From: an uncultured Candidatus Saccharibacteria bacterium
GTDB taxonomy: Bacteria; Patescibacteriota; Saccharimonadia; Saccharimonadales; JACDBH01
Length of the DNA: 64,000 bases
Assembly (NCBI GenBank): GCA_964431415.1
Contig: CAYSJS010000005.1
Location: forward strand, 7,132 to 71,131
Direction of reading: 5' to 3'
Under the pieces are notes generated by a model. The model was not told the DNA's origin and made no database searches. It was given only the letters and a program-made list of their open reading frames with translations. Below, one piece after another: positions 31,260-55,153 of the stretch. Position 1 is the stretch's first letter. Each line of letters begins with the position of its first letter. A program made the translations under genes and the position numbers.

Positions 31260-32225
31260 TTAGCGCCTCCTCTTCTTATTTTTCTTGGCGCGTGACTTTT
31301 TTGACGGTTGTGTTTGTTTTGGCTTCTCTACCACTTCGCCCTCGACAATTGTCCGGACAGTGGTTTTGGTTGTCGATTTTTTACTGTGTAGGCTCGATTC
31401 AATTTCTGATTCGTCCCGCCCAAGTACGCGGTTCTGCTGAATCAGGGCGACAATACCGCTCACTAACCAGTACAGGCTAAGCGCAGAGGCAATATTCACG
31501 GTGAAGAAAAATATCATAACAGGAATAAAGAACCGCGTACTTCGTCCAACAGCGGCGCTCACTTCAGACTGGTCGGCCTGTTCGCCCTTCCCTGCACTCT
31601 TTAAGATGTCACGGAGCTTGCGAGCATCTTTGTCATTTGGCATAAGTTGCTTACTTTGATAATACTGGCTTACGGCACTACCGATCACCAGGATCATAGC
31701 CGGCCAATAGATACCGCCGGTTTTTTCTATTGCACTACGGGTAAGATCAACCACACCAAATAATGTGTGGTCAAACTTCGTAATGTCACCCGCCAGCTCC
31801 TTCATCCAGTTGAAGTTCTGGATAAACGGGTAACTAAAGTCAATTATATTGCGCGGATTGCTGATGATTCTTTGAATGCCCGAGTAGAGCCCGAGGAGAA
31901 TTGGCAGCTGCAAAAGAACAATACCAAACGAACTAAACGGATTAACTCCGCGTTCTTTGTAGAGTTCCATTACCATAAGTGACTCTTTTTGCCTGTCCCC
32001 TGCCGCCGCTTTTTTAATACGCCGAAGCTCAGGCTGTAACTCCCTCATCGCTTTGGCATTGTGCAGCTGCTTTTTAACGAGCGGCCACATAAGCAAGCGC
32101 ACTACTATAGTAAAGAGAATAATTGCGAGGCCAAAATTATGGCCAGGCAAAAGATTATAAATAAGAACCAAAAGGTTAAAAATAGGTCGAACAATCAGTG
32201 TCGTAAACATACGATGTAACGTCAA
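31260..32225 (-). CDS. yidC: Membrane protein insertase YidC (short, Gram-positive type)
   Basis: 321 aa. LLMWPLVKKQLHNAKAMRELQPELRRIKK...ELYKERGVNPFSSFGIVLLQLPILLGLY, with a basic C-terminal tail. Confidence 0.9.
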   Translation of the reverse strand: MTLHRMFTTLIVRPIFNLLVLIYNLLPGHNFGLAIILFTIVVRLLMWPLVKKQLHNAKAMRELQPELRRIKKAAAGDRQKESLMVMELYKERGVNPFSSFGIVLLQLPILLGLYSGIQRIISNPRNIIDFSYPFIQNFNWMKELAGDITKFDHTLFGVVDLTRSAIEKTGGIYWPAMILVIGSAVSQYYQSKQLMPNDKDARKLRDILKSAGKGEQADQSEVSAAVGRSTRFFIPVMIFFFTVNIASALSLYWLVSGIVALIQQNRVLGRDESEIESSLHSKKSTTKTTVRTIVEGEVVEKPKQTQPSKKSRAKKNKKRRR

Positions 32226-35942: not shown

Positions 35943-36998
35943 ATGCTTATAGACATACAACTAAAGCAGTTTCGCTCGTATGAAGACAGTTCATTTGAGT
36001 TTTCTGATGGCGTCAATATAATTATTGGACCCAATGCGAGCGGAAAATCAAACCTACTCGAAGCGATACTGGTATTGGCGCGCGGAAGTTCATACCGAGC
36101 TTCGGACGGTGATCTTATGCAGTTTAATAAAACATGGGCGCGGCTAGATGGACTTATGAAGGATGGTTCGACCAGGACCATAAAATATAAAACCACAAAC
36201 AGTAAACTGGTTAAAACATATGAATTTAACGAAAAAACATATGTACGACTTACTCATCAACACACCATCCCGGTTGTTCTGTTTGAGCCCAACAATATGT
36301 TTCTTTTGATAGGACAGCCTGAAGCGAGACGAGCCTATCTAGACGATCTTCTTGAGCAGCTAGAACCAAGCTTTGCTTCCCTGCGTCTCCATTACCGCCG
36401 CGTCCTAAGTCAGCGAAATGCTCTATTGAAGCGTCAGCCGCGGGACATCACCCAACAGATGTTTGTTTGGAATGTAAGGTTGAGTGAACTTGGTGGTCAC
36501 ATCGCTCGGTCACGCACGCAGCTCGTTGGACAGCTTCAGGAGGTGCTTGGAGGACTCTACAAGAGCATAGCCGGCTCAGTAACGGATGTGGGTGCGGAAT
36601 ATGTATCAGGCTTACCGCTCAACACGTACGAATCAACTCTTTTAAAGCAATTAGAAAATTCTTTAGAGAAAGACCTGATACGTGGCTTCACTTCGATCGG
36701 GCCACACAGAGACGACCTAGTGCTCCGGTTTAACGGGGTGCCCGCGGCAGAAACGGCTTCACGGGGCGAAACACGCACCGCCCTGCTCGCCCTTAAACTC
36801 TTTGAACTTACGATGCTCGAAAAAGTCCGAGGTATGAAGCCGCTCTTACTACTAGATGACGTGTTTAGTGAGCTAGACGGCAAACGCCGGCATGCGCTAA
36901 CGGACTATCTACAAAATTATCAAACATTTATAACCACCACCGATGCAGACGTGGTTGGTAAAAAGTTTTCCCAGCGCGCCCACACTATCACTTTCTAG
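35943..36998 (+). CDS. recF: DNA replication and repair protein RecF
   Basis: 351 aa. Walker A GPNASGKSNLLEAI, signature-like region, Walker B LLLLDDVFSELD. Confidence 0.95.
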   Translation: MLIDIQLKQFRSYEDSSFEFSDGVNIIIGPNASGKSNLLEAILVLARGSSYRASDGDLMQFNKTWARLDGLMKDGSTRTIKYKTTNSKLVKTYEFNEKTYVRLTHQHTIPVVLFEPNNMFLLIGQPEARRAYLDDLLEQLEPSFASLRLHYRRVLSQRNALLKRQPRDITQQMFVWNVRLSELGGHIARSRTQLVGQLQEVLGGLYKSIAGSVTDVGAEYVSGLPLNTYESTLLKQLENSLEKDLIRGFTSIGPHRDDLVLRFNGVPAAETASRGETRTALLALKLFELTMLEKVRGMKPLLLLDDVFSELDGKRRHALTDYLQNYQTFITTTDADVVGKKFSQRAHTITF

Positions 36999-37687
36999 TC
37001 TAGATCGGGAAATGTTCGTGTGCCCGAACTTCGAGTCACTAAATAAGTGTAACGAATATTTTTTAGTGAAGACTCCTTAAGACTGTTCATTAAGTAGTTT
37101 TCGGCAAGCGATTTTGTGTTTGCAGAGCCGTCATATGAAGTGATTAGAAAAGTATCAGAATTAGTTTGATAATCAATGCTGTAACCGTCCTTCTCGAGCG
37201 GAAGAGTGCCTATAAACTGATTCCGGACCGAATTAGAAGAAAGCTCGCCGTCGATGTTTTGTTTTGTTTTCGTGTCGGTTATAGAAATCTTGATTCTTTC
37301 TTTTTTCAACAAAGTAACCTCTACGGTAATGGTGTTCTTTAGTGCGCCATACCTACCCTTAAAACGAATTATTTTTTCTGATTTCTGAGGAGTTGATTCA
37401 AGCTTGAAGCCGACAGAAGACCCCTTGTTCTGATACGCTGGATAGTTCTTTTTGGCAAAATTGAATAGATCGCTTGCCATAAATTCATGAGCCTTAAGGC
37501 TCTCCATTTGTTTCATGAGCTCTTCTCCGCCGGTTATAATCGCTTGCGAACTGTAGTTGTTAGACGTCGGTTCGTCCGGAAGCTGGTCTATTGAGTTTTT
37601 TCTAGGAAATAACAGAATTACCAGAATAAGAATTGTTATTCCCGCTACTGCTATGAATATGTTTTTTCTCTTTTGTTTTGCTTGCAT
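36995..37687 (-). CDS. Bitopic membrane-anchored protein, last gene of the T4SS-like operon (VirB8-like size and topology, unproven)
   Basis: 230 aa with a short basic N-terminus, one TM (IFIAVAGITILILVILLF) and a ~190-aa extracytoplasmic domain. A 2-nt gap separates it from the upstream gene. No motif was recognised. Confidence 0.5.
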   Translation of the reverse strand: MQAKQKRKNIFIAVAGITILILVILLFPRKNSIDQLPDEPTSNNYSSQAIITGGEELMKQMESLKAHEFMASDLFNFAKKNYPAYQNKGSSVGFKLESTPQKSEKIIRFKGRYGALKNTITVEVTLLKKERIKISITDTKTKQNIDGELSSNSVRNQFIGTLPLEKDGYSIDYQTNSDTFLITSYDGSANTKSLAENYLMNSLKESSLKNIRYTYLVTRSSGTRTFPDLD

Positions 37688-37689: not shown

Positions 37690-39597
37690 TTACCTCGGCA
37701 AAGATTCGTATAGTCTACTTAAGAAAGGTATAAACGCAGGATCACGGCAGTCATCCGAGCCGCCGCGTTGAGGTATCATGACGCCATTTGGACCAGGCAA
37801 ACTACATCCGCGATCAATATGTAGATGTGGACCACCTCCCCAACATCTAGAAGTGTAGTTTCGTGCATCGGCAACCTTGCCTAGTACAGTGCCGGCAGCT
37901 ATATGCACGTTTTCTGCGACTACTACATCTTTCATGTGGCCGTACCAATAGTAAAAGCCGTCATCGGCCTTAAACTGGATACTAGAACAACCCTGTTGTC
38001 CCCCTAGACTGGTGTTTATTGTTACTGGAGTACCACTATATAACGCATAAACCGTGGCGCTATCGGTACTAAACAGGTCGAAAGCAGGCGTACGGTCGTG
38101 GTGGGTTGTAGTTGTTTGTCCAATTGTAATACCGCCCACCGCTTGTGTTTGCGGAGCAATTGGAAAAGAGTAGCCTTCTATGCTTACCGCCCCCCCGTTT
38201 GCACCTCCGGTCAGATTTGATGTGCAAAGTGCTGTGGCGGGTCCGTTAGCTGGACCAAACGCTAAACCACGCGTAACCTCATCTATAGTGGTGTAAAGAA
38301 GGTTTACGTAAGAACCTTCATCGTTCCCGGCAGCACTTCCGGGGGCGTAATGGCTGATATATGTTGCGAAATCATGTGATTCATACATGCTTCCATGGTT
38401 GAGATATTTTCTGCGTATTGCCGCAAAGAAGTCCTCGCGTGTGTTTGCTATCGTAGAGTCTAGACTGCCTTCCCATGACGGCCATATAAGTACTTTGTAG
38501 TCTCGATCACTTGCATGATAAATCGCGTACGGTTGTTGGCTGGTCGTAGCGCCAAAAGCGTTATAAGTAGGCGGAGTCAGGGTGTGCCATCCTCGTGCGG
38601 CGGTAGCAAAACCATTTTCTTGCCTCAAATGGCCGACCGCTAAAAAGGGATTCACATTGCTTCTTTTTCCGCCAGAAATGAAGTATTTTCCCAGACCTAC
38701 AAACGGGCTGCTGGGCCAACCTGCGCGTATATAATCATCGATTGCATTAGCCGCAGCAACTTCATCGGATATTCTTGGGTAAGTAAGTATGTGTTGTGGG
38801 TTCCCGTCTTCTGGTATGTCGTTTAGGCTTTCGTCTACGCCCGTCGGCGCACTTGTTGCGCCTGTCTGGAGACCTGCAACGATTGTGTCGGCAAATTGTT
38901 TTTCGCCGTTTGCGGTTGGGTGTGTCCCATCTGTTCCCAGTTCGATTCCTGCATTCACCGTGTCTATGATTACATAATTGGATTTTGAGGGCGCTGCCTG
39001 GTCGGTAATGATAGTGTTTCGTGCGGACGGACCGCCGTCTTTAGTGTAAAAAAGATTCACCCAATAAATAGGCACGCCTGGTTTTGCTGTTCGAATCTTA
39101 CTAACAAGTGCCGGAATTTGTACGTTCAAATCCTCTACACCACTATTTGTACCTAGGGCTACCACAACAACATCAGATTGTTGTATGGAGTTTACATCTG
39201 TCTCGGCGGCTGCTATACCGCTAGATCCCGGAGGTGATGTATCGGTGAGTATTGCCCTGCCTGAGTCGGCGTTTATTTTTGTTATCACAAATCCCGCCTC
39301 GGTAAAGGCGTTTTGTATCTCGGTTTGTGAGTTTACTGTGAGCGAATCTCCTATCATATAAATTTTTGAGCCAGACGCTACTCCCACTACGTTTACTCCG
39401 TCTCCTCGCCCCGTAGCGCAGATAGGTTCCTTGGCGGTTTTATCGTAAAAGGCCCAGGTGTTTAGGACGTCATTTAAGTCCTTACTGGTGATCGCATAGA
39501 GATGCTGGCTACCTAAGGCGAATATAAAACAGAGCATCAGTACGGCGGCTGCAAGTCTCCTGGAAGATTTGCCAAACCAAGCAACAGTGTTTTTCAT
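37690..39597 (-). CDS. Secreted multi-domain cell-wall hydrolase: SGNH hydrolase + glucosaminidase-like + M23-like peptidase
   Basis: 635 aa with a signal anchor. SGNH blocks are IYMIGDSLT, ALGTNSG and DGTHPT. The middle segment is LAVGHLRQENGFATAA...YNAFGA (glucosaminidase/muramidase-like). The C-terminus has HHDRTPAFDL ... GPHLHIDRG (M23-like HxH). Confidence 0.75.
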   Translation of the reverse strand: MKNTVAWFGKSSRRLAAAVLMLCFIFALGSQHLYAITSKDLNDVLNTWAFYDKTAKEPICATGRGDGVNVVGVASGSKIYMIGDSLTVNSQTEIQNAFTEAGFVITKINADSGRAILTDTSPPGSSGIAAAETDVNSIQQSDVVVVALGTNSGVEDLNVQIPALVSKIRTAKPGVPIYWVNLFYTKDGGPSARNTIITDQAAPSKSNYVIIDTVNAGIELGTDGTHPTANGEKQFADTIVAGLQTGATSAPTGVDESLNDIPEDGNPQHILTYPRISDEVAAANAIDDYIRAGWPSSPFVGLGKYFISGGKRSNVNPFLAVGHLRQENGFATAARGWHTLTPPTYNAFGATTSQQPYAIYHASDRDYKVLIWPSWEGSLDSTIANTREDFFAAIRRKYLNHGSMYESHDFATYISHYAPGSAAGNDEGSYVNLLYTTIDEVTRGLAFGPANGPATALCTSNLTGGANGGAVSIEGYSFPIAPQTQAVGGITIGQTTTTHHDRTPAFDLFSTDSATVYALYSGTPVTINTSLGGQQGCSSIQFKADDGFYYWYGHMKDVVVAENVHIAAGTVLGKVADARNYTSRCWGGGPHLHIDRGCSLPGPNGVMIPQRGGSDDCRDPAFIPFLSRLYESLPR

Positions 39598-39602: not shown

Positions 39603-42266
39603 TTAATTTACCTCGTTATCGGGGTTTTGTAACTCACGAAAATGGTCGTACACATTGTTATTGCGTTTGGATAAGCGCCACCTAAAAACTAGGTCGCCAT
39701 AGCCATCGTTATTTTGAATTCCGAGTTTTGTAGGTGAGCAGTCGCCCTTATCTACGATGACCTGTCCTTCTGCTTCGCGCTGTATGTTTCCTTTTGCTAA
39801 CATAGTTCCCATCGAATCTTCATAGCAGTGTTTATATTTATTTTCAATCTCATCTTTTTTCCCGCTTGCGTCCAAGATAAGTTCGTTAGCCATCGGTTGG
39901 TAATCGGCATTGTTTAGAATGATCGCCTCTTCTTCTTCAGACCACACCCATTGCACAATATTATAATCTCCGGCGCCGCTGACTGTGTTGCTCGCGGCAA
40001 ACAATTTCCTAGGAGAGACTACTTTGTAAAAAGCGTTTGAAAGTGCGCTGAGAGAATCTGACAGATTCCCGAAAATTCTTGCCGCAAGCGTGTCCGGCTT
40101 AGACATAAACGAACTAATGCTCATGCCGACTCTCGATACAAAAGAAGACGGGTTGCTTACAGCAAAATACCTTTCAGAAAAACTTTTACGGCTGTTTAGT
40201 TCTTGTATGTATGCAACATCCTTGTCTTTGGATGCCTGAACCTCAGGTGTTGTTAACGGGCGACCATAAAGAAGTTGTTGGCCATAGTCGCGGTTGAGGA
40301 GGTTGCCCCCCATATCCGCCTGATTGGCGAAGGTAGCATCCATAGAGAGTCCGTCGTTAGCTGCTTTCACGTGCTTTAATACTGCCATTTTGGCGAGCTC
40401 GGTCAACCCTAGGGTTGCTCCAACCGTCAATCCTGTCTTTACTAAAAACTTTCCTAGTGTATTTTTGAACGCAAATACAACTCCTTTTTCTTCGATCATA
40501 GCTCTTGTCTTTGCGAATGTGATGCGCTTTACAAAGTTTTGCATAGCAAGTTTAACGCCGGTTGCGGCGGCTTCTTCGCTCGCCGCCGAACCTCCTCCAG
40601 TGAACAAACTGGCGGCGAATTCAAGAACCGCTACCGTAATCCCCACCTTAAGATCCGTGATGAACCCACACCCTTTGTCAGCGACCTTGTTCATTGCGTC
40701 AACAGCGGCACCGTCTCCCAGGGCAACATTAATAAGACTGTAACTGCCCGTAGAGGAAGACTCCGGCAGCTCAAGAGCGTTCATCTGCGTTGAAGGGTCA
40801 ACAATCTTGTTTGAAGCACGAAGTTGTGGAACCGAATCACTAATATCGCCGATCTTACCCGTAAACGCACCGACCGCTTCAGCTATACTCTCGCCCGCTT
40901 TTTGCTGATCGGCAGCTGTAACAACACTAAAGTACTGCTTTTGAAGTGCGAGCTCGTTTTGATCGATAATGTCTGCCGAGTTCTCAATAGAACCTTCATA
41001 TATGAGGCAAAGTGGCACGGCGACTGCATATACAACAGATGCGGCTTCAAGAGCCCTTGTAACCCCTGTTGCTTTTACGGATCCATCAAGTGTTCTAGCA
41101 CGAGTCTCGTTCACTTTATTTTCTACACTGCGTGCACCGCCGCCGTTTTCGTCGTCGACCGCATCTTTGAGCGCTTTCTTAGTTGCATCTTCGGTTTCTT
41201 TAGCCGCGTCGCAAACCGACTGAACAATCCGGCATGAACTATCCTCGCCCTTCAACGCATTATATTCGTCTTGCTGAGCTAGCCTTTCGGCGGCCTGTTG
41301 CTTCAGGTCCTTGTACTTGTTGCCGTATTTTTCCCACCACCGTAACTTTATGCCTTTATCGGCAAGGATTTTTTTTAGCACTGATCCGCGCACGTATGTT
41401 TTGTAGCCCTGTAAATCTTTTTCTATCACTGCGGCGGTTTCGGCGGCGAAGCGCACTCTTTCGGCGCTATTTTGAAATACTCTAAAGAACTTTGAATTAC
41501 TCTTCTCTATGAATGTAACAGTACCGTCAGTCGATGTATAGTTATAGCCGGCAAACACCTTTTTTGGTTTTCCGAAGATTGTTTGCCCTTCGGTAACATA
41601 AACAGGCTCGAAACCGCGGTTCAGGTTTTGAAAGACTTTGCTGGGCCTGAGTGCATTAAATTTATCTATAGCGACGCCAACTTTTGTGGCAGAAAAACGA
41701 TCTCTAAGAGTTATATAACGCGAGTCGGTCATCGTTTCGCTGGCGATATTCTCTTCCAAGATCTGTGCTTGGCTGAGTCGCAAAGATCTGGAGCTTCGCG
41801 CTAAATTCCATACCGTAATGTTCTCTGCCAGCTGTATGATTTTTAGTGAACTAAAATACATGGAAATAAAAATGATTGCTACAGCAAAAATACCAAGAAA
41901 ACCAACAAAAAAAAGTGTGGTTTTTCGCTTCAGTTTTTTCTTGACACCCTTTCTTATTTCCAGTCTTCTCTTCTTCGGTTCGCGGGTGTATGTGAACGGG
42001 GTATCATCTTGAGTTGGCTCGTCTGTGTCTGTTGTTGATTCGTCCTCGCCATCTCCATCCTCGTCATCGTCCGAATATATATCCTCAGGCTCTTCGCTAG
42101 AGTTGTCTACAGAATCTAAGCCAGATCGTTCCGGGTTTTCTTCCTTGTTTCTAAGCTCTTTATCGTAGCGTTCAAGCTTATCAAGTGCGTTGGCTCGTTC
42201 CTCTGCTGCACGTTCTCGTTCTCGGAGACTCGTGTCGTCGGGGTCATATATAGGTTTAGGTGCCAT
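39603..42266 (-). CDS. Large T4SS-associated membrane protein of unknown function
   Basis: 887 aa. About 100 aa at the N-terminus are hyper-acidic (EEPEDIYSDDDEDGDGEDESTTDTDEPTQDD). These are followed by a basic patch (KKRRLEIRKGVKKKLKRK) and a TM, with further hydrophobic segments mid-protein. No Walker A motif is present. Confidence 0.6.
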   Translation of the reverse strand: MAPKPIYDPDDTSLRERERAAEERANALDKLERYDKELRNKEENPERSGLDSVDNSSEEPEDIYSDDDEDGDGEDESTTDTDEPTQDDTPFTYTREPKKRRLEIRKGVKKKLKRKTTLFFVGFLGIFAVAIIFISMYFSSLKIIQLAENITVWNLARSSRSLRLSQAQILEENIASETMTDSRYITLRDRFSATKVGVAIDKFNALRPSKVFQNLNRGFEPVYVTEGQTIFGKPKKVFAGYNYTSTDGTVTFIEKSNSKFFRVFQNSAERVRFAAETAAVIEKDLQGYKTYVRGSVLKKILADKGIKLRWWEKYGNKYKDLKQQAAERLAQQDEYNALKGEDSSCRIVQSVCDAAKETEDATKKALKDAVDDENGGGARSVENKVNETRARTLDGSVKATGVTRALEAASVVYAVAVPLCLIYEGSIENSADIIDQNELALQKQYFSVVTAADQQKAGESIAEAVGAFTGKIGDISDSVPQLRASNKIVDPSTQMNALELPESSSTGSYSLINVALGDGAAVDAMNKVADKGCGFITDLKVGITVAVLEFAASLFTGGGSAASEEAAATGVKLAMQNFVKRITFAKTRAMIEEKGVVFAFKNTLGKFLVKTGLTVGATLGLTELAKMAVLKHVKAANDGLSMDATFANQADMGGNLLNRDYGQQLLYGRPLTTPEVQASKDKDVAYIQELNSRKSFSERYFAVSNPSSFVSRVGMSISSFMSKPDTLAARIFGNLSDSLSALSNAFYKVVSPRKLFAASNTVSGAGDYNIVQWVWSEEEEAIILNNADYQPMANELILDASGKKDEIENKYKHCYEDSMGTMLAKGNIQREAEGQVIVDKGDCSPTKLGIQNNDGYGDLVFRWRLSKRNNNVYDHFRELQNPDNEVN

Positions 42267-42270: not shown

Positions 42271-44181
42271 CTACATTCCTGGAGTTAATCGGTTGCTGAG
42301 GTCGATCGTTCCTTGCGGTTGATTGAGGTCTCCCTGCGCCATCGCCTGTACCTGACCTGGGTTGGTTGTGATGAGCCCGGTTTCGGTGCCGCTGGCAATA
42401 ATCTGGATATGTACATGGTTTTGACCTGCAAAAAAGAGGCCTTGTCCGACCGGGAACTGAGCGAGTCGTTTTTTCTCTTCGCTGGTGAGTTTAAATACGT
42501 CGCTGAGCACATCCACCGCAGAGGCGGACTGTTTAAGTAGTAGTTGCATGCTGGCGTTGGCAACAATTGCTCGCCCCATACGTGAACCCATAAAATCTTC
42601 AACGTCTTGCGTGATTGTGGTGATGCCAAGGTTATATTTGCGGGCGCGCTTGGCAAGACTAAACAAGAAGTTAGCAGAATCTTCATACTTCATCAGTTGC
42701 CACGCCTCGTCTACGATGAGGATACGTCGTTTCTGGTCACTCTTCGTTTTGTTCCATATGTAGTTGAGGACAATATACATAGCTACCGGGCGAAGTTCAT
42801 CTTCAAGATCTCGAATATTAAACACCACCATCGGGTTATTGATATTTATGTTGCTTTGCTGACTAAAAATACCGGCAAATGTCCCTGTTGTGTACTTGCG
42901 AAGCCTTTGGGCGAGTTGCGGCCCGGTTCCGCCCATGTGAAGCAAAGTATCGTAGAGTTCATTGATGGTTGGCGGTGGGGACTGATGAGTGAGTGGGTCG
43001 TTAGTTATACCTGCGCGGGCGTAGGTTTCTATTAAAGCGGCGTCAAGATCCGACTCCTCTACTGGGCTCAGTGCAGGAGCGGCTACCATCGCGCCTTGGG
43101 TGCTTTGTATTTGTGACTGCGCGCCGCCCATCATCAAACGCAGCAGGCCATGCAAGGTTATCAGGTTGCTCCTCAGGGCGTTGTCAGATTCTTCGGCATC
43201 AATAACTCGCGGAAGGTCGAAGGGGTTAATTCGTGTCTGCGAATTAAGGCTGAGCCGTACATATGCCCCACCCACCGCGTCGCACATACGCTGGTATTCG
43301 TTTTCTGGGTCGATAATAAATATTTCCGTGCCAAACATGAGTGAGCGAAGTGCTTCAAGCTTCACGGAGAAGCTCTTACCTGCACCAGATTTCGCAAACA
43401 CGACTGAGTTGCCGTTTTCTAGACTAAAGCGGTCAAAAATCACGAGTCCTGAGTTATGCATGTTAATGCCGTACAAGATACCGTTGTCTTGGCTTAGGTC
43501 TGCAGAAGTAAATGGGAAACTTGTGCTTAAAGCGCCGGTGTTCATGTTGCGTCTAATCTGCAACTGGTCGGTGAACTGCGGCAAAGTACTGTTAAGCCCC
43601 TGTTCTTGCTGTGCGCTGGCAGCTTTTGAATATATGAGCTGTTGGCCGAGCATGGATTCTACTTTATGACTCACAAACTCCAGCTCCTCAAGGCTGTTGC
43701 CGTATACCGTAAAGTAAAGCCCAAAGCGGAAGAAGCGCTCTTCGCCCACCTGGAGCTTATCGCGCATTTCTTCGGCGTCCATAATGCTGGCTTGTTTGCC
43801 TGGATCACGCACCCTGCCCTTTTCGGCATCTATCTGGATGCCCGCTTCAAGTTGTGACACTTTTTTGCGCAAGTTCTCAAGCACCACCTGGCTTTCTACC
43901 GGATAAATGAACATACTCAGGTCGATTACTTCGTCTAGGTTCACCATGCTGCTGAGCCAGCCGGTAAAGATCTTTCTTGGGTAGCCGTACACATAAAATG
44001 TGCGTGCATAGCGGGTGCCTATACGGAAGTAGCCGCTCTGGAATTCGATAGAACTTGGAGCAATAAAGTCCCGCAGCGCGGTAACGCCCTTTTGAAAGGC
44101 GGCATGCACCTCTTGTTCTTCACGTATCTTCTGAGCCTGTGCAAGTGCAACGGGGTCGTTTTGAACCTTATTCTTTTTCAT
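42271..44181 (-). CDS. virB4: VirB4/TrsE-family type IV secretion ATPase
   Basis: 636 aa. Walker A FAKSGAGKSF and Walker B RRILIVDEAWQLM. The N-terminal domain (YARTFYVYGYPRKIFTGWLSSMVNLDEVIDLSMFIYP) is typical of VirB4-type proteins. Confidence 0.9.
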   Translation of the reverse strand: MKKNKVQNDPVALAQAQKIREEQEVHAAFQKGVTALRDFIAPSSIEFQSGYFRIGTRYARTFYVYGYPRKIFTGWLSSMVNLDEVIDLSMFIYPVESQVVLENLRKKVSQLEAGIQIDAEKGRVRDPGKQASIMDAEEMRDKLQVGEERFFRFGLYFTVYGNSLEELEFVSHKVESMLGQQLIYSKAASAQQEQGLNSTLPQFTDQLQIRRNMNTGALSTSFPFTSADLSQDNGILYGINMHNSGLVIFDRFSLENGNSVVFAKSGAGKSFSVKLEALRSLMFGTEIFIIDPENEYQRMCDAVGGAYVRLSLNSQTRINPFDLPRVIDAEESDNALRSNLITLHGLLRLMMGGAQSQIQSTQGAMVAAPALSPVEESDLDAALIETYARAGITNDPLTHQSPPPTINELYDTLLHMGGTGPQLAQRLRKYTTGTFAGIFSQQSNININNPMVVFNIRDLEDELRPVAMYIVLNYIWNKTKSDQKRRILIVDEAWQLMKYEDSANFLFSLAKRARKYNLGITTITQDVEDFMGSRMGRAIVANASMQLLLKQSASAVDVLSDVFKLTSEEKKRLAQFPVGQGLFFAGQNHVHIQIIASGTETGLITTNPGQVQAMAQGDLNQPQGTIDLSNRLTPGM

Positions 44182-45110
44182 CCTAGTTCCTTCTCGAGGT
44201 TGGGTTGCGGAGCGTACCCATCGCCCTTTGTGATAACCGGGGCGGTTAGGTCGTTAAAATTCTTGAGCTGTTGGCGGGTCGCAGTGTCGGGATTGTAGGC
44301 GTCGTAGTAGAGTTCAATCAGCTCCTGGGTGTCAAGGGGTAAGCCCTGGATGCCGCACTGTAGCAGGCCGCCAAGCGCTGCCTGGACACGGTTTCGAAGC
44401 TCTGTCTTAGCCGCCTCGAGTTCGGCCTCGTTAATGGTGACATGCTGTTCTTTTTTGGAGAACACGCCAAAGAGTGAACCGATGAAGTTTTTGCCAGCCT
44501 CAACGGCTTTTTGGGCGTCGATAACCGGAATATAAGGGATAACCACATAAAACTTTTTATCCATAATGTTTGTCTGCGTGGCAAGGTCACTCATGAAATC
44601 AATATAATCTTCCATCAGGAGTGCGAGTAGCATGTTGTCGTGCTCGGTGCGGATTTTGTCCAGCTTTTCGATATAAGGCCTCAAGTCCACTTTTTGAGAA
44701 CGCGTAAATATCTGAACTGGGAAATAAAGGGAGTTTAAAAAGCCCTGATAACTATACTCTACCGCTTCTCTTTCCTGCGGACTCATAAGGTCAAAGTTAA
44801 TGCTTTTGACCATAATAACGGAGCGAAAACTGCCGTCGTTCATAATCACTATGCCGTCGCGTATTTCGGCAATCTGTAAGGAGTTTTGGGTGCTGTTGGG
44901 ATTGCTCTGCACCGGCTGTACGGTTGGGGCGGCAGGCTGACCGTTCATGGCCGGCATAACACCCGGCGTATATTGCATTGCGCCGTAGCCCATGGGGGCA
45001 TTTTGGGTGAGAAGTGGATTCGTTACTTGAGGTTGGGGTGTGATGACAGGAGCAGCTGGTTGGTTCGGGATATTTGGCAACTGATTTGGTTGTATGCTGT
45101 TTGGATCCAT
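44178..45110 (-). CDS. T4SS-associated protein: Pro/Gln-rich N-terminus plus a globular domain of unknown function
   Basis: 310 aa. Its stop overlaps the virB4 start (ATGA). The globular part (IRDGIVIMNDGSFRSVIMVKSINFDLMSPQEREAVEYSYQGFLNSLYFPVQIF) resembles the N-terminal region of VirB4-like proteins but has no P-loop. Confidence 0.55.
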   Translation of the reverse strand: MDPNSIQPNQLPNIPNQPAAPVITPQPQVTNPLLTQNAPMGYGAMQYTPGVMPAMNGQPAAPTVQPVQSNPNSTQNSLQIAEIRDGIVIMNDGSFRSVIMVKSINFDLMSPQEREAVEYSYQGFLNSLYFPVQIFTRSQKVDLRPYIEKLDKIRTEHDNMLLALLMEDYIDFMSDLATQTNIMDKKFYVVIPYIPVIDAQKAVEAGKNFIGSLFGVFSKKEQHVTINEAELEAAKTELRNRVQAALGGLLQCGIQGLPLDTQELIELYYDAYNPDTATRQQLKNFNDLTAPVITKGDGYAPQPNLEKELG

Positions 45111-45154
45111 AAATATTTATTCCACCCCCTCCGGTGTGCCCTGCTGGCTACTGT

Positions 45155-46303
45155 TTAACGTAGCGAAATCGTCACCTCACCGTCTGACTCGCTTATTTGC
45201 TGAGCTTGTCGGGCGATTGTTGCCACGTTTAAGTCGTCATTATTCGCAAGACTAAGTATAGCAGGATTAGGGGTCGTGGTGCTAGTTGGAGTAGTGTTGT
45301 TTTGCACTGGAATGCTTGCGGGTGGCGGCATTGGAACAGGTGTGGGCGTGGGTGTGGCAGTCGTTGGCTGTTGTGGGGCGCTCGTGCCTTGCACGGAAAG
45401 CGGCTGAATAGTTTTTAAGTGGGACGTATAGGTTGGGTCATCGGCTTTGTCCGCCTCAATTTTTTTAATCAACCGTTGTTCTTCGGCGGTCGGTTCTGGG
45501 GTAGCAATGTTAGAGCCAGGACTAACCACAGTAGAGCCCGTAAAGGTTGCCATACCGGGTGGAGTTTGGGGCGGACTTGCTGGCTGATTTAAGAACCAAT
45601 AATCTGCTGGGGGTGCCGTAGGCCCTGCTGGGGTTGGGTTTTGTACGCTTGCCATCACTTGTTGTAAATGCGCGGCAGTTGATGCCTGAACCATTTGGTC
45701 GAGGTGTTGTGCCGTTGGGTTATTGGTTGCGTCCAGCATGTCATCGGCGGCGCGAATATCCCCTGCCTGTTCCGTTATGGGTAGATTGCTTGGTGCGACG
45801 AGTCGGTCGGATCCGTCCGCTGTCGAGAGATAGCCTGGTTGTGCGAATAAGTTTACGTCCACGTTCTTAACGGCCCAGCCGCGGCTATCTAGCGTGCTCG
45901 CAAGAGCACTTAACCGGCTCTTGACCTCGTTTTGGCTCAATCCGTCGCTATACACATGCTCAACTTTTCTCGGTGCCGTAATAGTTACAAGTTGACTGAT
46001 GCCGTCCTGATTCCATATACGTACGTGAGGTTTCACTAAAAAACGGAGTCTTGCAAGTAACCACACGTCATTAGGTTGATCCCTGCTGATAGGAGCAGCT
46101 AAAAATCCAAACACCACCATAGGAATAAGTAACACAACAACAATAGGCCACCTAACAACGCTCAGTGCGGTAGTGGTAGCCAGTTTAAACTCAATAAATC
46201 CAATCAGCACAAAAATAATAGCAAAAATAAATTGCTTAAACGTCAGCGGCCCAAGAAGCTTGTCCTCGGCCTCAATATCCTGCAAAACCTTATACGTCGC
46301 CAT
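45155..46303 (-). CDS. PrgI/VirB3-like membrane protein with a long Pro/Thr-rich C-terminal extension
   Basis: 382 aa. The N-terminus MATYKVLQDIEAEDKLLGPLTFKQFIFAIIFVLIGF plus a second TM matches the PrgI-family pattern. The C-terminal ~200 aa are low-complexity P/T/Q/A. Confidence 0.65.
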   Translation of the reverse strand: MATYKVLQDIEAEDKLLGPLTFKQFIFAIIFVLIGFIEFKLATTTALSVVRWPIVVVLLIPMVVFGFLAAPISRDQPNDVWLLARLRFLVKPHVRIWNQDGISQLVTITAPRKVEHVYSDGLSQNEVKSRLSALASTLDSRGWAVKNVDVNLFAQPGYLSTADGSDRLVAPSNLPITEQAGDIRAADDMLDATNNPTAQHLDQMVQASTAAHLQQVMASVQNPTPAGPTAPPADYWFLNQPASPPQTPPGMATFTGSTVVSPGSNIATPEPTAEEQRLIKKIEADKADDPTYTSHLKTIQPLSVQGTSAPQQPTTATPTPTPVPMPPPASIPVQNNTTPTSTTTPNPAILSLANNDDLNVATIARQAQQISESDGEVTISLR

Positions 46304-46355
46304 TACTTATTTAAGTATCGGCGAATACGACAATTATCGCAAGTATACTTAGTGC

Positions 46356-47228
46356 CTAAAAGTGAACGATCTGTCCAGGCTGAACAATGGTAGTGCTTCG
46401 TGCGGCCCGTTTTTGCTGGTGTCTAACCGCTGCGCTGTCCGCCCTCTGTTGCCACTTTTGAGTTTTTCTTTCTAAACGACGGTATTTTCGGCTTAGCGGC
46501 CTCAGTGAACCTATTGTTTCTTTACGAAGATCCTTTTCTGCTACACGAACATTTTTAGCCATTTTTTTCTGGTATGGCCGGGGTTTAAACTGCGAGGGCT
46601 TGGGCTTAGCAAGCGAGTTGTTTAGTGCTTTGTTTCGGCGTTCTAAAGTAATACGACCTTTATCATAGTCACGACGAATCTGTCTCTGAGCTTGCCGGGT
46701 TTTGTGTTTCGAGAGTTTCATGCCGGCGCTTGGGTTGGTGTATGCACCAGAGTTTTGTCGCTCTAAGTTCGCGGTTGTTTTTGCAAGTATGAGGTTCTTC
46801 TGTTTCTCGGCTACTCGCAGCTCAATAGCTCGTTCTTTTCTGTTCCGTGCATGCGGATGTTCTAGAGATCCTGTTGTTGGGTTTATTTCTACTACCGAAC
46901 TTGTTCCGGTTGTGGCAATTGCGCCGATGTGCCTATAGAAGTTAAGTCGATGACCAGCCGTCTCTGCTCTTTTTGAAGCTCTGGATGCTTTTCTTTCTGC
47001 TAATACAGAAAACAAACCCTTGGTTGCAATAGTACCACCAGGAGATGGGGGTGGAGTGACTATATTTGGGTTTGGGGCCACATTTACTGCAGGGGTTAAA
47101 TTAGGGTTTAGCGCCGCTGGGCCAGTAGGAGGCTGCGCGAAAGGGTTAGTATGAGTATTGGGTGTCGGGGGTGCGAGGGGCGGCCCTGTTGGTGGTGGAA
47201 AGTTCACGTTTTGGTTTGGGTTTGTCAT
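46356..47228 (-). CDS. Highly basic soluble protein of unknown function (Pro-rich N-terminus, Lys/Arg-rich remainder)
   Basis: 290 aa with no TM segment. Dense K/R runs include KHKTRQAQRQIRRDYDKGR and RKYRRLERKTQKWQQR. It lies inside the T4SS-like operon. Confidence 0.55.
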   Translation of the reverse strand: MTNPNQNVNFPPPTGPPLAPPTPNTHTNPFAQPPTGPAALNPNLTPAVNVAPNPNIVTPPPSPGGTIATKGLFSVLAERKASRASKRAETAGHRLNFYRHIGAIATTGTSSVVEINPTTGSLEHPHARNRKERAIELRVAEKQKNLILAKTTANLERQNSGAYTNPSAGMKLSKHKTRQAQRQIRRDYDKGRITLERRNKALNNSLAKPKPSQFKPRPYQKKMAKNVRVAEKDLRKETIGSLRPLSRKYRRLERKTQKWQQRADSAAVRHQQKRAARSTTIVQPGQIVHF

Positions 47229-47280: not shown

Positions 47281-50200
47281 TTATGGAATATTGTTAGGAT
47301 CTACTGGTTGGTAGGTTCTTGATTTGGCACGGGCGATATCACCATTAGTTTCTGCAACCTGCTCTGCCCTCCAGCCACGCGCTTGCTCCTGAGGGGTCCA
47401 AGTGGCTAGATGCGCCGCGTTTGTAGCGTCAAAGTTGACACGCCTTTCAACGGTGGCCTGGCGCATAACAGGGTTGCCCGTAGCGGGATCTATAACCGGT
47501 GTATTGGTGAGAGGATCGATCTCCTGCACCATTCTTCCGGAAGCTTGGTTGCTGTAGTTTGCAACACCACGGCCACGGAGTATCTCCATCTGCTTGTCGA
47601 TTTCGTCTGCCACCGCCCCGGTAGCATTAGGTCGCATAGCCTGCATTTCTTGGTAGATTACGGCAGCCTTATCCATTTGGTCTCCTGTCAAAGGACCGAC
47701 AGTCGGGATAGTGGCGGCCATGGCTTCAATAGATTGTTTCTTGGAGTTTGCAAGCTGGTACAGACTAGCCTTACCAAGGCCGGTCTCTGGGCTATATCCA
47801 GCCCCGTGATTGATTCCGGCAAGATCGAAGCGACCCGCGTTCTTCAGGTGATACTGCGCTTCGTCCATGGCGGCAGCATATGCGCCCTCGTCGTTTCCGA
47901 CGATACTTCTCATGACGCTGCTCAGCTCGTTGTAACCATCTTCGCCGGCGCTGAACTGGTAGCCTGTTTTAGCAAGTGCATTGGCGGCGGCAAGTCGGAC
48001 ACTGTCTTGTTTTCTGTCTGCGACTTGACGTGCTGCATTAAGACCTTTTCTGCGCGCATTGATGGACTGGGTGCGAGAAGTAACTTCGTCTTGAGCTTCT
48101 CGTCGCTCTTCCATGCTAAGGGTCATGTCAGCACTTCGCGCCATTGCGGCGTCGCGTCTTGCAATATCCTCGTTAAGTTTTCTTACTGCAAGCTGTTCGT
48201 CTGTAAGTGCAATCAGGAAGTTATCATCTTGTCCGTGAGCTTGCACCGTTGCGTCATTCTTTAGTATCTCTGCTCCATACGCTGCGCGACCGGTTTGACG
48301 TGCGGCAGTAATTCCCGCTCGGCCACGGATAATACTAGAAGGTTGTCTGCCCCATTTATTAGCCGCTCCGCCTACTGTGTTCAGGGCGTGGCCAATCCGA
48401 CTGCGATCGCTAAAGCGGCTGAAGTTTTTGAGCTTGTCCACGTTGGTTGCTTTTCTTGTGCTACGGAATTTCTTGTTACGATCAAAGAACCCTTTCCCGC
48501 GGTCATTAACCATGCCGCCTATTGACGCTACTGCTCCACCGGCTAGACGAAAGGCTGCAGGAAGCGCAAAGTACGGGCCGAAGTAAGAGAAGAATACTAT
48601 TACGTCCCGGAAAAGCGAGCTGCTGTTTTGAGCCGGGAGGTTACTGGTCAAAATTGCGAATACGCGCCCGATAGCAATAAATGCCGTTATTATAGGAAAT
48701 GCTAAAAGTGCCGCCTGGAAATTTGTCTTCCAAAAACCCCAGGCTTTTTGCGTGTTTGGCAGGATCCATAACACCAAAGCCAGCGGAGCTGTAATAACGA
48801 GTAAAATTATAAGAATATTTCGGAATGCCACTACTAAGAATGCGATCATTACTGCGGCAAGCCCAGTAAGCATAAAACTGAGCACTACTAGGTAGTCAAG
48901 CCCGCTAAAGAAGCCCACGATCGCAGCCACCGTACCAATGGACTGTCCCTGGGCTCCTATTGTTGGATTGGTGAGTCCTCCAAACGGAGAAGCAATGACC
49001 GACCCGACACCCTTTCCAAAGTCGTTGGATATGCCAATGAGGAGCTTACATAGTTGCCATGACAGGGTTATGAATATGACTGCGACAACAATTCTTGGCA
49101 GGACCTTCTTCACTGTGTATGAATCAAAAGGTCCGCTAGAGATTGCCTGCGAGATTACCATAACTAAAGCTATGACCACTAAAATAGCAAGAGCAATTGT
49201 CCTGAATGATGCCCACGCGGTATAGAGTGACTTTCCTCCTTTCACGTTGTTCTCGTCAAACGCGGAATCCTTACCAATTGGCACAGCAAGCTGATTATTA
49301 ATTTGTGAATCAAGCATATTAATGCCGCTTGACGCCATTTCTATAAGCGGACAGATAAAATACGAGAGCGGATTGATTATTGAAAAGTCACAGTTAAGGT
49401 CGATATCGGCATCGCTTACGCCGACTCCGTCTCCTCCGTCAGTTTCTGCGGCGACTGACTTTGCCTGGGCTACCCGCACCTTCTCGGACCCATTTTCGTC
49501 GCCGTATTTAACGTCTAGAGTGCCAGTACAGGTATCACAGTCAAATAATTTGAGTACCTGCTCTTGTGTAAGGCTGTTCCACGCCGTATCAAACAAAACT
49601 TTTCCCCCAGAAGACGGTTGGAAGAAGCGCTGAATTGTACCGGTGCTGTTGGCGGCGATAGAGTATGTCTCTTTGTCATCAACGCGAACTATGGTGTTAT
49701 TTTGAAAAGCATACCCTATCTTAATTGCTTCAGGATTTGTAAGCTTGGCAACTGGCGCCCTATAATCATCAGTTCCGATTACATCTTCATTGCTATCGAA
49801 AGTTGTTGTAATGCCAACCGAGCACGTGTGAGAATGCCACCCCATATTGCAGTCGCCATCATTAACTTCGTCAACAAAGAAAGAATATGCATCGGTTGCC
49901 AACGCACCGCTGTCGTCTAAGTATAGACGTAAGTAGAGGGTAACTTTTTGGGTGGCCCAAGCAGTGGTGTCGGTAGTCGAAGTATCGACAGTGGGTACAT
50001 CGGATTCAGTATATAGATAGCCGTTGGCGTAAAGTTTTGTCTCTCCCCAAGACTTAATAACTTTCTTAGGCAGCTCCCACTGGTCTTTAGAGTCGCCTAT
50101 ATCGGTATCGACATATACTCCGCTAAAAGCCTCCTTATATGTAACTGACCCCGTAGTTACGGACTTGAAGACGTTTTCATCTAAATTAATGTCAACATTA

Positions 50201-50391
50201 ATTCGAGCACGATTAATAACAGTAAAAGTCGATGCGTTAAGTAGTTTATCTCTGGCGGCGTCACCTCCGCCCATACTATTGAAGTCTGGAAGGTCGGTTG
50301 CTCCTGCTTTGGCGGGCATGGCTAAGCTAGCCAAGCTAAAAAGTACGGCAAATGCAGAAAGCCCCAACCCGATTCTTTTTAAATACTTCAT
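47281..50391 (-). CDS. VirB6/TrbL-like polytopic membrane protein with large extracellular N-domain and cytoplasmic C-domain
   Basis: Signal peptide MKYLKRIGLGLSAFAVLFSLASLAMPAKA from ATG 50391 (the track starts at GTG 50412). A ~380-aa Cys-containing exodomain is followed by 6-8 TM segments (aa ~400-640) and a ~400-aa soluble tail. The VirB6 assignment rests on architecture and context. Confidence 0.6.
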   Translation of the reverse strand: MKYLKRIGLGLSAFAVLFSLASLAMPAKAGATDLPDFNSMGGGDAARDKLLNASTFTVINRARINVDINLDENVFKSVTTGSVTYKEAFSGVYVDTDIGDSKDQWELPKKVIKSWGETKLYANGYLYTESDVPTVDTSTTDTTAWATQKVTLYLRLYLDDSGALATDAYSFFVDEVNDGDCNMGWHSHTCSVGITTTFDSNEDVIGTDDYRAPVAKLTNPEAIKIGYAFQNNTIVRVDDKETYSIAANSTGTIQRFFQPSSGGKVLFDTAWNSLTQEQVLKLFDCDTCTGTLDVKYGDENGSEKVRVAQAKSVAAETDGGDGVGVSDADIDLNCDFSIINPLSYFICPLIEMASSGINMLDSQINNQLAVPIGKDSAFDENNVKGGKSLYTAWASFRTIALAILVVIALVMVISQAISSGPFDSYTVKKVLPRIVVAVIFITLSWQLCKLLIGISNDFGKGVGSVIASPFGGLTNPTIGAQGQSIGTVAAIVGFFSGLDYLVVLSFMLTGLAAVMIAFLVVAFRNILIILLVITAPLALVLWILPNTQKAWGFWKTNFQAALLAFPIITAFIAIGRVFAILTSNLPAQNSSSLFRDVIVFFSYFGPYFALPAAFRLAGGAVASIGGMVNDRGKGFFDRNKKFRSTRKATNVDKLKNFSRFSDRSRIGHALNTVGGAANKWGRQPSSIIRGRAGITAARQTGRAAYGAEILKNDATVQAHGQDDNFLIALTDEQLAVRKLNEDIARRDAAMARSADMTLSMEERREAQDEVTSRTQSINARRKGLNAARQVADRKQDSVRLAAANALAKTGYQFSAGEDGYNELSSVMRSIVGNDEGAYAAAMDEAQYHLKNAGRFDLAGINHGAGYSPETGLGKASLYQLANSKKQSIEAMAATIPTVGPLTGDQMDKAAVIYQEMQAMRPNATGAVADEIDKQMEILRGRGVANYSNQASGRMVQEIDPLTNTPVIDPATGNPVMRQATVERRVNFDATNAAHLATWTPQEQARGWRAEQVAETNGDIARAKSRTYQPVDPNNIP

Positions 50392-50466
50392 TACTTTATA
50401 TAAATATACCACAAGAATCGTAGACGTATATCGTTATATATTGATAATAATGGGGGCAATACGCCT

Positions 50467-53853: not shown

Positions 53854-54345
53854 CTATTGAATCTCGATCTTCTTGACTGTGTCTTGCTTTACTTTGGCGA
53901 ATGAAATGGTCAATACGCCATCCTTAAGCATCGCCTCAATCTCTTCTTCCTTAACAGGCACTGGCAGTGCAATGCTGCGGCTAAATTCACCCCAGTAACA
54001 TTCCTGCACGAAGTAGTTCTCTACTTCGTCTTCGTTCCCCGCACTGAGTGTGCCGCGAATGCTTAGCGTGTTATCGGAAATGCTTACATCAAGTTCGTTT
54101 TTGTTGACCCCTGCGGTGCGAGCCTTTACAACTAGTTTGTCTTTTGTTTCGTATACATCAACAGCCAACTGCCCCGGAACCGGATCGTCATCGTCCCAGT
54201 CTGAAGCGGTAGGTGCTGGACCCTGTTGATCGTCGGCCGGCAATGGACCACCCTGCATCTGCATTGTGCCGTCATCCTCTCCTAGAAAGGCAGCCGTAAG
54301 CTCGTCTTCCATCAAGAGGTCGTCATCCTGATCCCGTCGTGCCAT
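53854..54345 (-). CDS. hsp20: Hsp20/alpha-crystallin family small heat-shock protein
   Basis: 163 aa with an acidic N-terminus. The ACD reads LAVDVYETKDKLVVKARTAGVNKNELDVSISDNTLSIRG...GEFSRSIALPVPV...DGVLTISFAKV. Confidence 0.9.
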   Translation of the reverse strand: MARRDQDDDLLMEDELTAAFLGEDDGTMQMQGGPLPADDQQGPAPTASDWDDDDPVPGQLAVDVYETKDKLVVKARTAGVNKNELDVSISDNTLSIRGTLSAGNEDEVENYFVQECYWGEFSRSIALPVPVKEEEIEAMLKDGVLTISFAKVKQDTVKKIEIQ

Positions 54346-54478: not shown

Positions 54479-55153
54479 GTGAAATTAATTGAACAAATTT
54501 TTCGTTTTATTGCCCCGGATGAATGTATCCTGTGCGGTATCGAAGGGTCTCTTATCTGTAAGGAGTGTGCATCAGTGGCTTATGCCTCCCCTCCGCCCCG
54601 TTGCTATCGTTGCTATCGTGAATCTCGGGCGTACATGACGTGCTCAAACTGTCGACGGCATACTATGCTCAGAAGTGTATTTGTGTGTTCACTTTACTCA
54701 ACTAATGCGCGTGAAGTTATTCATCGTCTTAAATTTGGCTACACAAAATCGGCAAGCGAGCACATTGCGCGTAAAATGGCGGAGATTTTGCCCGAACTGC
54801 CCAGTGACACAATTATCATACACATCCCTACAGCTTCGTCACATGTGCGGGAACGAGGTTTTGACCAGTCGGCCCTTATCGCTCGGGACCTTGCTTACCT
54901 TATTCATGCACCCCACATCCATACCCTTGCCCGTCTAGGACAGCAGCGACAAGTTGGTTCGAATAGAATGCTTAGGATGACCCAGATGAAAGACGCGTTC
55001 CGAATTGTTTCAAAGGAGTTCATTGGGTCACATGTTTTGCTGGTAGATGACGTGTTGACCACCGGGTCTACACTTGAGTCGGCGGCTTTAGTACTAAAGC
55101 GTAGCGGCGCAAAAAGTGTGTCAGCAGTTGTGTTTGCGCAAGCAAAGGGGTAG
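54479..55153 (+). CDS. comFC: ComF-family protein (ComFC-type phosphoribosyltransferase-fold competence protein)
   Basis: 224 aa with GTG start. Four N-terminal Cys pairs (CILCG..CKEC...CYRCYR..CSNC) are followed by the PRTase motif VLLVDDVLTTGSTLESAA. Confidence 0.85.
   Translation: MKLIEQIFRFIAPDECILCGIEGSLICKECASVAYASPPPRCYRCYRESRAYMTCSNCRRHTMLRSVFVCSLYSTNAREVIHRLKFGYTKSASEHIARKMAEILPELPSDTIIIHIPTASSHVRERGFDQSALIARDLAYLIHAPHIHTLARLGQQRQVGSNRMLRMTQMKDAFRIVSKEFIGSHVLLVDDVLTTGSTLESAALVLKRSGAKSVSAVVFAQAKG

Follow-up and report, generated by a model that had tools for sequence, protein, structure and literature searches.

A predicted SGNH-GH73-M23 cell-wall hydrolase encoded in a Saccharibacteria type IV secretion operon

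A 64,000-nucleotide stretch of contig CAYSJS010000005.1 (assembly GCA_964431415.1, from an uncultured Candidatus Saccharibacteria bacterium), here called the window, carries dnaA, dnaN and recF on its plus strand and, converging on them, a compact minus-strand operon for a type IV secretion system (T4SS). We analysed one gene of this operon, which encodes a 635-residue putative cell-wall hydrolase (Table 1). The initial annotation, made from the letters of the sequence, had proposed that this protein is secreted and combines an esterase, a glycosidase and an endopeptidase, and both the open reading frame (ORF) and every motif quoted for it were found exactly where that annotation had placed them (GDS at residues 83-85, GTN at 149-151, DGTHP at 223-227, QENGF at 326-330, NAFGA at 346-350 and HLH at 591-593 of the translation). 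The gene is tightly packed: the stop codon of the upstream 887-residue gene lies 5 nucleotides (nt) ahead of its ATG, which is preceded by an AGGA ribosome-binding site, and the gene for an exported 230-residue protein starts 2 nt past its stop codon. Its membership in the T4SS operon, also asserted initially, is directly supported by the VirB4-like ATPase, the PrgI-family protein, the pilin array and conserved synteny. Each of the pilin paralogs has a signal peptide and the C-terminal motif ...GG.KYITS.GD...AK.T..YA.IGL, and the array matches those known from Candidatus Southlakia epibionticum and other Patescibacteria (PMC10633639, PMC12102498). The layout of the window as a whole is that published for Saccharibacteria, in which the Southlakia genes SEML1_0006-0019 lie beside dnaA-dnaN-recF (PMC10633639); T4SSs of Patescibacteria in general are described as having this layout too, and are homologous to monoderm conjugation machinery (PMC12102498).

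Table 1. Coordinates of the hydrolase gene, its predicted domains, the neighbouring genes and two ORFs from related loci. Window coordinates are given unless a locus is named.
Feature	Coordinates	Strand	Basis or remark
dnaA	33143-34522	+	
Exported 230-residue protein, possible accessory factor	36995..37687	-	No Pfam match; downstream of hydrolase
Hydrolase ORF	37690-39597	-	ATG start, 635 aa
M23 (LytM/lysostaphin-type) zinc endopeptidase domain, residues 471-635	37693..38187	-	Pfam, profile, Foldseek
Divergent GH73 endo-beta-N-acetylglucosaminidase-like domain, residues 262-450	38248..38814	-	Profile, AlphaFold2, Foldseek
SGNH/GDSL esterase domain, OatA-C-like, residues 72-248	38854..39384	-	Pfam, profile against PDB, Foldseek
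Low-confidence linker/tether with conserved YD...C motif, residues 37-71	39385..39489	-	Model confidence and alignment
Signal peptide or signal-anchor, residues 1-36	39490..39597	-	Read from translation
887-residue membrane or extracellular protein	39603..42266	-	No Pfam match; upstream of hydrolase
VirB4-like ATPase	42271..44181	-	Pfam TraG P-loop 2.2e-27, AAA_10
Three genes: 310-residue conserved T4SS protein, PrgI/VirB3-family protein, 290-residue protein	44178..47228	-	Pfam, synteny
PrgI/VirB3-family protein	45155-46303	-	Pfam PrgI 2e-9
1043-residue polytopic membrane protein, VirB6-like by position	47281..50412	-	Conserved in related loci; SEML1_0011 equivalent
Seven VirB2-like pilin paralogs, 95-194 aa	50504..53670	+	Divergent from T4SS operon
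M23 fused to C-terminus of 887-residue-protein homologue	L016, 7178-10546	+	1122-aa ORF; Saccharimonadales metagenome-assembled genome
Four-module hydrolase, Amidase_2, SGNH, unassigned region, M23	L022, 9152-11893	+	913 aa

Read from its N-terminus, the hydrolase consists of a signal peptide or membrane anchor, an SGNH domain, a divergent GH73 domain and an M23 domain. An identical protein is encoded on six public metagenome contigs and is annotated there as Peptidase_M23 only. The first 36 residues comprise a basic n-region, a 15-residue hydrophobic stretch (LAAAVLMLCFIFALG) and a possible LYA cleavage site, with no lipobox present in the translation, and an AlphaFold2 (AF2) model places a helix at residues 2-29. 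This hydrophobic helix suggests that the protein is exported, with the helix either cleaved as a signal peptide or retained as an anchor. The predicted local distance difference test (pLDDT) score falls below 50 for residues 30-71, a region whose YD...C motif is conserved in the alignment of relatives. Used alone, the protein sequence gave no match in a scan of NCBIfam and returned only noise from a search of PDB sequences, and the domain assignments below draw on Pfam, family profiles and predicted structures. Relatives were collected by a search with a nine-sequence alignment, which yielded a comparison set of 23 related loci from species-representative genomes, designated by L numbers.

The SGNH domain is most similar to the C-terminal domain of the peptidoglycan O-acetyltransferase OatA (OatA-C). 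The Pfam family Lipase_GDSL_2 (PF13472) matched the window protein over profile positions 2-176 of 178 with a score of 21.6 bits against a gathering score of 32.9, and the gathering score was exceeded by the relatives in L001 (33.3 bits), L002 (33.2 bits) and L022 (41.9 bits). A profile built from 17 family sequences matched Staphylococcus aureus OatA-C over its full length in the PDB (E=1.7e-7), with the GDS, G-R, LGTN and DG.H motifs of the two all lining up. Structure comparison with Foldseek likewise placed OatA-C on top; next came a CE3 esterase, Cj0610c and PatB, all of them enzymes acting on carbohydrate or peptidoglycan acetyl groups. OatA-C (S. aureus 6wn9/6vjp and S. pneumoniae 5ufy) is thus the best match by both sequence and structure, and has an SGNH fold specific for peptidoglycan glycan. 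The predicted catalytic residues are S85, G113, N151, D223 and H226; among the 17 family sequences G83-D84-S85 and G149-T150-N151 are invariant, and G113, D223 and H226 are kept in 14, 15 and 16, respectively. A search with the single SGNH sequence recovered only stand-alone GDSL proteins and no OatA relatives fused to an AT3 domain, a result uninformative on the origin of the domain. SGNH domains also recur in phage tail fibres, including those of phages of Actinobacteria (Clavibacter, Gordonia).

The middle domain is assigned to a divergent branch of GH73. With the window protein alone, the Pfam Glucosaminidase family (PF01832) gave a weak match (E=0.09; 13.9 bits against a gathering score of 30.2), but the relative in L001 exceeded the gathering score (34.9 bits), and 43 of 83 sampled representatives of the middle-domain family matched at E<1e-3, the best at 1.5e-14. 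A 35-sequence profile of the domain matched nine distinct solved GH73 enzymes in the PDB, among them AtlE (7.7e-7), Acp (5.5e-6) and the glucosaminidase of Atl (9.3e-6), as well as FlgJ, LytB and Auto. A separate AF2 model of the domain, built from a deeper alignment, reached a pLDDT of 92.9 and a predicted template-modelling score of 0.89, and the top 18 PDB matches to this model in Foldseek were all GH73; the full-length model, of medium confidence, gave no middle-domain match within its top 50. The predicted catalytic glutamate, E327, aligns with the catalytic glutamate of AtlE, Acp and Atl (ETGNG) and is invariant in the 83 representatives and in the 35-sequence set, and within the YNAFG motif (residues 345-349) N346, F348 and G349 are nearly invariant. 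The domain therefore has in common with AtlE, the Atl glucosaminidase, LytB, Acp, FlgJ and Auto the fold, the E-x-G context of the catalytic glutamate and the YN.FG motif, while belonging to a subfamily of its own, of which about half reaches PF01832: an exhaustive profile search of representative sequences returned 596 clusters at 50% identity, and the modules with which the wider subfamily is combined include M23, C39, CHAP, NlpC/P60, amidases and SLT. A word-indexed profile search of a 5.8-billion-protein collection came back empty even of the family's own members, a result that probably reflects a limit of the tool and should not be taken as absence. We also considered a muramidase or lytic transglycosylase and rejected both, since all significant matches were to GH73 and goose-type lysozyme and SLT appeared only at E>0.04.

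The C-terminal domain alone of the three passes its Pfam threshold in the window protein itself (M23; 36.2 bits against a gathering score of 28.7). Its family profile matched the solved lytic endopeptidase 8s3m (2.9e-9), LytM (8.7e-9) and lysostaphin (3.2e-6), and Foldseek returned Csd1/2, LytM and lysostaphin at a probability of 1.0, with target-normalised TM-scores of up to 0.63. Every one of the 23 sequences compared has D507, H554, H591 and H593, and H591-L-H593 and H554 align with the PHVH and YMH motifs of LytM. An invariant histidine, H499, lies 8 residues upstream of D507 (H-x7-D, with spacings of x6 to x8 among relatives) and would be a displaced first zinc ligand. Longer His-Asp spacings are also used by other lysostaphin-like metallopeptidases (LAS enzymes) and by M23A enzymes. 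A degenerate M23 domain, like the LytM domain of the pCF10 protein PrgK, was set aside as the default, since four of the five catalytic positions are canonical and invariant and the fifth histidine is invariant nearby. Of the four cysteines, 537, 598 and 617 are invariant in the 23 sequences and 585 is mostly conserved, which fits disulfide bonds and thus suggests an extracytoplasmic location. Other traits of the family are a GY.FP..PQ signature upstream, H-x6-8-D in place of HxxxD, HLHIDRGC and a PQ.GG..CRDP tail with the conserved cysteines. By these traits, M23 domains of the window type look like a distinct Saccharibacteria subfamily.

All three regions are thus supported, beyond the motifs first quoted, as catalytic folds whose catalytic residues are conserved, save for the displaced first zinc-ligand histidine of M23. 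The SGNH-domain and metallopeptidase assignments of the initial annotation were borne out, the latter with a non-canonical first zinc-binding motif, and of its glucosaminidase or muramidase-like middle segment the glucosaminidase half was upheld and the muramidase half was not. The annotation had named absence of the catalytic glutamate or metal ligands as grounds for abandoning the idea; the residues concerned (E327, D507, H554, H591 and H593) are invariant.

The related loci revealed that the hydrolase varies far more than the system in which it is encoded. All 23 belong to Candidatus Saccharibacteria/Saccharimonadales, and in 19 the order prgI, gene for the 310-residue protein, virB4, large protein, hydrolase, recF, dnaN, dnaA is kept, or that part of it which the contig holds; the 230-residue protein was detected beside the hydrolase in nine. 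Identity to the window copy is 68-93% for VirB4 in the loci that carry it, but only 29-58% for the hydrolase, in which modules differ. The SGNH, GH73 and M23 combination of the window recurs in L001, L002, L003 and L006. SGNH and M23 flank a different lysozyme-like domain in L007 and an unassigned middle region in L019, and a further module, Amidase_2, precedes SGNH in L022. Eight loci have a GH73-like domain and M23 without SGNH, L011 and L017 combine Phage_lysozyme2 with M23, and the more distant loci L018 and L021 combine SLT with M23. At least five such architectures occur among loci whose VirB4 is 86-93% identical to that of the window, namely SGNH, GH73 and M23; GH73 and M23; Phage_lysozyme2 and M23; SGNH, the other lysozyme-like domain and M23; and the four-module form with Amidase_2. 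The contrast is sharpest in L001, where VirB4 is 93% and M23 71% identical to the window copy, SGNH is only 27% identical and GH73 is of a different subtype, which suggests replacement of the N-terminal modules by distant homologues and not gradual drift. In L016, M23 is instead fused to the large T4SS protein next to the hydrolase, and in Southlakia the adjacent large protein, SEML1_0007, ends by published annotation in a metallopeptidase-like domain with a DD-peptidase fold. Both arrangements indicate that the peptidase module is functionally tied to the T4SS apparatus, and the module appears to move between two adjacent T4SS genes. Within a T4SS that is otherwise highly conserved, the hydrolase slot thus appears to be the most plastic part, with modules exchanged like cassettes on a constant M23 domain. 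The 887-residue protein has an acidic, probably disordered N-terminus and a transmembrane helix near residue 120. Its gene diverges faster than any other in the cluster, the protein being 23-30% identical or undetectable where VirB4 is 81-93% identical.

The reading that best accounts for these data, to which we give a probability of roughly 0.7, is that the hydrolase is the dedicated cell-wall-opening enzyme of the Saccharibacteria T4SS, doing the job of VirB1 in a monoderm-type machine from the position held by SEML1_0006 in Southlakia. The protein would be exported by the Sec pathway and held at or near the machine by its N-terminal helix and a flexible linker of about 35 residues. The OatA-like SGNH domain could then strip O-acetyl groups from the glycan strands of peptidoglycan, after which the GH73 domain would cleave GlcNAc-beta-1,4-MurNAc bonds (between N-acetylglucosamine and N-acetylmuramic acid) and the M23 domain the peptide cross-links. 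If the domains cooperate in this order, their combined action would make a local hole for the T4SS channel and the VirB2-like pilus. The M23 fusion in L016 links the hydrolase functionally to the apparatus, and in Southlakia SEML1_0006, a three-domain protein (two lysozyme-like domains and a Cys proteinase), is essential by transposon sequencing (Wang et al. 2023, PMC10633639), as is the entire T4SS cluster for epibiotic growth (PMC10633639).

Several points weigh against this assignment. The window protein alone scores below the Pfam gathering score for both SGNH and GH73; among solved structures the SGNH domain lies nearest to OatA-C, which is a transferase and not an esterase; and in M23 the position of the canonical HxxxD histidine is occupied by T503 (in alignment with FHPGVD of 8s3m), so that the motif is not matched. 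The evidence for essentiality is confined to the Southlakia gene at the same position, which has a different domain set. Finally, only the middle domain of PrgK is catalytically important, its LytM and CHAP domains being regulatory (PMC12857230), and the presence of a domain is accordingly no proof of its activity.

Whose wall is opened is a separate question. In line with the host-wall reading of the initial annotation, the enzyme may act mainly on the wall of the host at the contact site, removing O-acetyl groups and cutting glycan and peptide so that the pilus or channel reaches the host membrane, with a module set tuned to host peptidoglycan chemistry. We regard this as possible but somewhat less than probable. 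The multiplicity of architectures on a highly conserved VirB4 background fits such a role, although it does not prove it, as do the module replacement in L001, the range of other hydrolase modules with which the wider GH73 subfamily pairs, the fact that the nearest multi-domain viral analogues, which carry GH73 and M23, attack the wall from outside, and the requirement of the T4SS for growth on the host (PMC10633639). Yet the similarly modular hydrolases of Gram-positive conjugation are thought to open the donor's own wall (PMC12857230), the machine must cross the peptidoglycan of the Saccharibacteria themselves as well, and exposed proteins may also evolve fast for other reasons, phage or immune pressure among them. 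More speculative, and to our mind rather unlikely, is the extension in which the slot is a hot-swappable "can-opener" cassette that is matched to host wall chemistry and helps to set host range. In that case the SGNH module would counter O-acetylation of host peptidoglycan as a repurposed OatA-type domain, turned from writer to eraser, and would license GH73 and M23 to cut a foreign wall from outside, in the manner of phage ejectosome lysins.

A second question is the reaction of the SGNH domain, which we suggest hydrolyses acetyl esters rather than transferring acetyl groups. In OatA transferases a Val or Ile is invariant at position 5 of Block II, and Gly or Ala mutants show more hydrolysis and retain 10-21% of transfer (PMC5697884). 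Block II of the window protein reads S112-G113-R114 and does not match the OatA motif (V/I)(G/S)(R/V); position 112 is S in eight, G in five, P in two, A in one and I in one of the 17 family sequences, so that a small residue or Pro replaces the Val/Ile in 16 of them. OatA-C is moreover fed by a fused AT3 membrane domain, and no acetyl-translocating AT3/MBOAT domain was found in the hydrolase, the T4SS operon and origin genes, or 10 other window genes sampled. The replacement of Val/Ile, the lack of an acetyl-donating AT3 domain in the protein and the fusion to two peptidoglycan hydrolase domains all argue for an esterase. The domain could instead be an acetyl transferase like OatA or PatB, a deacylase of another polymer or lipid (wall polysaccharide, teichoic acid, mycolate or membrane lipid of an actinobacterial host) or a glycan-binding module. 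In favour of one or another of these are that OatA-C and PatB, to which the domain is closest among solved structures, are transferases, that phage-tail SGNH domains, which are among the structural matches, deacetylate surface polysaccharides, and that outside the family the nearest sequences belong to GDSL proteins that stand alone and are labelled "lysophospholipase L1-like". We nevertheless judge them improbable even when taken jointly: beyond the arguments against transfer, the full catalytic set is conserved, which speaks against a pure binding role, and the PDB profile search ranked carbohydrate acetyl-esterases ahead of lipases and thioesterases. Least likely is a housekeeping autolysin that serves growth and division of the cell itself, adjoins the T4SS genes by chance and has no specific part in the machine, for although GH73 and M23 are frequent in division autolysins (AtlE, LytB, LytM) and small genomes carry few hydrolases, the gene is packed in the operon with gaps of 2-5 nt, keeps its position in 19 of 23 species, has its M23 module fused to the adjacent T4SS protein in L016 and swaps modules with a freedom not expected of an enzyme acting on a constant self wall.

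Elsewhere in the window, a cell-surface polysaccharide cluster (8720-30681) contains a NAD-dependent epimerase, a Wzt-type ATP-binding cassette ATPase with a Wzt_C domain and GT2 and GT4 glycosyltransferases, and a gene for YidC (31260-32225) lies upstream of dnaA. Beyond the pilin array, two ORFs have by eye the look of a small heat-shock protein (Hsp20/alpha-crystallin; 53854-54345, minus strand) and of a ComF-type phosphoribosyltransferase (54479-55153, plus strand), the latter from its N-terminal Cys pairs and VLLVDDVLTTGSTL. Scans of the window for tRNA genes and Rfam families were empty.

Few systems have been shown to be essential for the life of the ultra-small Saccharibacteria as epibiotic parasites, and the T4SS is one of them; in several lineages its hydrolase slot has gained a predicted acetyl-esterase of the peptidoglycan type. 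The slot provides a testable lead into the role of an essential secretion system of the candidate phyla radiation, for its modules can be set against the wall chemistry of the host. Action on the host wall would make the enzyme a determinant of host range, and would offer lytic enzymes that bring their own de-O-acetylation; were the cell's own wall its only target, it would be an ordinary, if oddly composed, VirB1 analogue.

Comparison with known hydrolases requires one premise of the initial annotation to be dropped. The three catalytic folds and the T4SS context that it described stand, but its statement that one lytic activity is the norm for T4SS hydrolases is true only of Gram-negative VirB1, and fails here because the T4SS of the window is of the monoderm (Gram-positive) type. 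Monoderm T4SS hydrolases are usually multi-domain, PrgK comprising LytM, MUR and CHAP and TraG comprising SLT and CHAP (PMC12857230, PMC12102498). PrgK (pCF10), TraG (pIP501) and Orf14 (Tn916) are also encoded inside T4SS operons of the PrgI/VirB4 type (MPF-FATA-like) and, like the window protein, carry behind an N-terminal membrane helix several extracellular peptidoglycan-hydrolase domains, which in PrgK number three and include a LytM/M23 fold. Two of the features by which VirB1-like proteins (classes ALPHA, BETA and DELTA) are recognised, namely a place in a T4SS operon and an N-terminal membrane helix ahead of extracellular hydrolase domains (PMC12857230), are found in the window protein. 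A third feature of these classes is an SLT or muramidase domain, with or without CHAP, that is homologous to TrsG, CD419 or VirB1. In contrast, the monoderm conjugative repertoire consists of SLT or muramidase, CHAP and degenerate LytM domains, with no SGNH esterase listed, and the M23 domain of the window keeps catalytic His and Asp residues whereas the LytM domain of PrgK is regulatory. Pfam gave no match to SLT or CHAP in the window protein, whose glycosidase is GH73 and whose peptidase is M23; it is therefore a functional analogue, and not a homologue, of the classified VirB1-like families. The systems themselves also differ, as the Saccharibacteria T4SS has pilins but no relaxase or coupling protein (PMC10633639).

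The nearest multi-domain structural analogues are phage ejectosome or internal and virion-associated proteins (PDB 9k2v and BFVD matches). The cyanophage A4 pre-ejectosome (9k2v) and a GH73-domain protein of Synechococcus phage S-SRP01 join GH73-like and M23 domains in one long protein. Such virion lysins and ejectosome proteins attack a foreign wall from outside, but they are viral structural proteins that function without a T4SS, and the likeness is one of domain and fold only.

The closest known counterpart, from the same phylum, is SEML1_0006 of Candidatus Southlakia epibionticum ML1, a protein of about 640 residues with three extracytoplasmic wall-hydrolase modules, one of them PF01832/GH73. 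The slot is the same as in the window, with dnaA-dnaN-recF, small exported protein(s), hydrolase, large protein, VirB4, a further protein and PrgI. The composition differs: by published annotation SEML1_0006 consists of a GH73-like lysozyme fold, a phage-tail lysozyme (PF18013) and a cysteine peptidase, with no SGNH and no M23. A survey of Patescibacteria T4SSs reported that "peptidase and lysozyme homologues" lie downstream of virB4, and also noted VirB1 homologues that carry an added M23 or LysM domain (PMC12102498). In the literature we found no description of an SGNH/OatA-like esterase module in a T4SS hydrolase, of systematic module swapping at this slot, or of an SGNH or M23 hydrolase in a Saccharibacteria T4SS, and the SGNH, GH73 and M23 set lies outside the published T4SS hydrolase repertoire (CHAP, SLT, MUR, LytM). 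This is thus not a new kind of system, multi-domain wall hydrolases in the slot being already known; the novelty lies in the SGNH module and in the cassette-like character of the slot.

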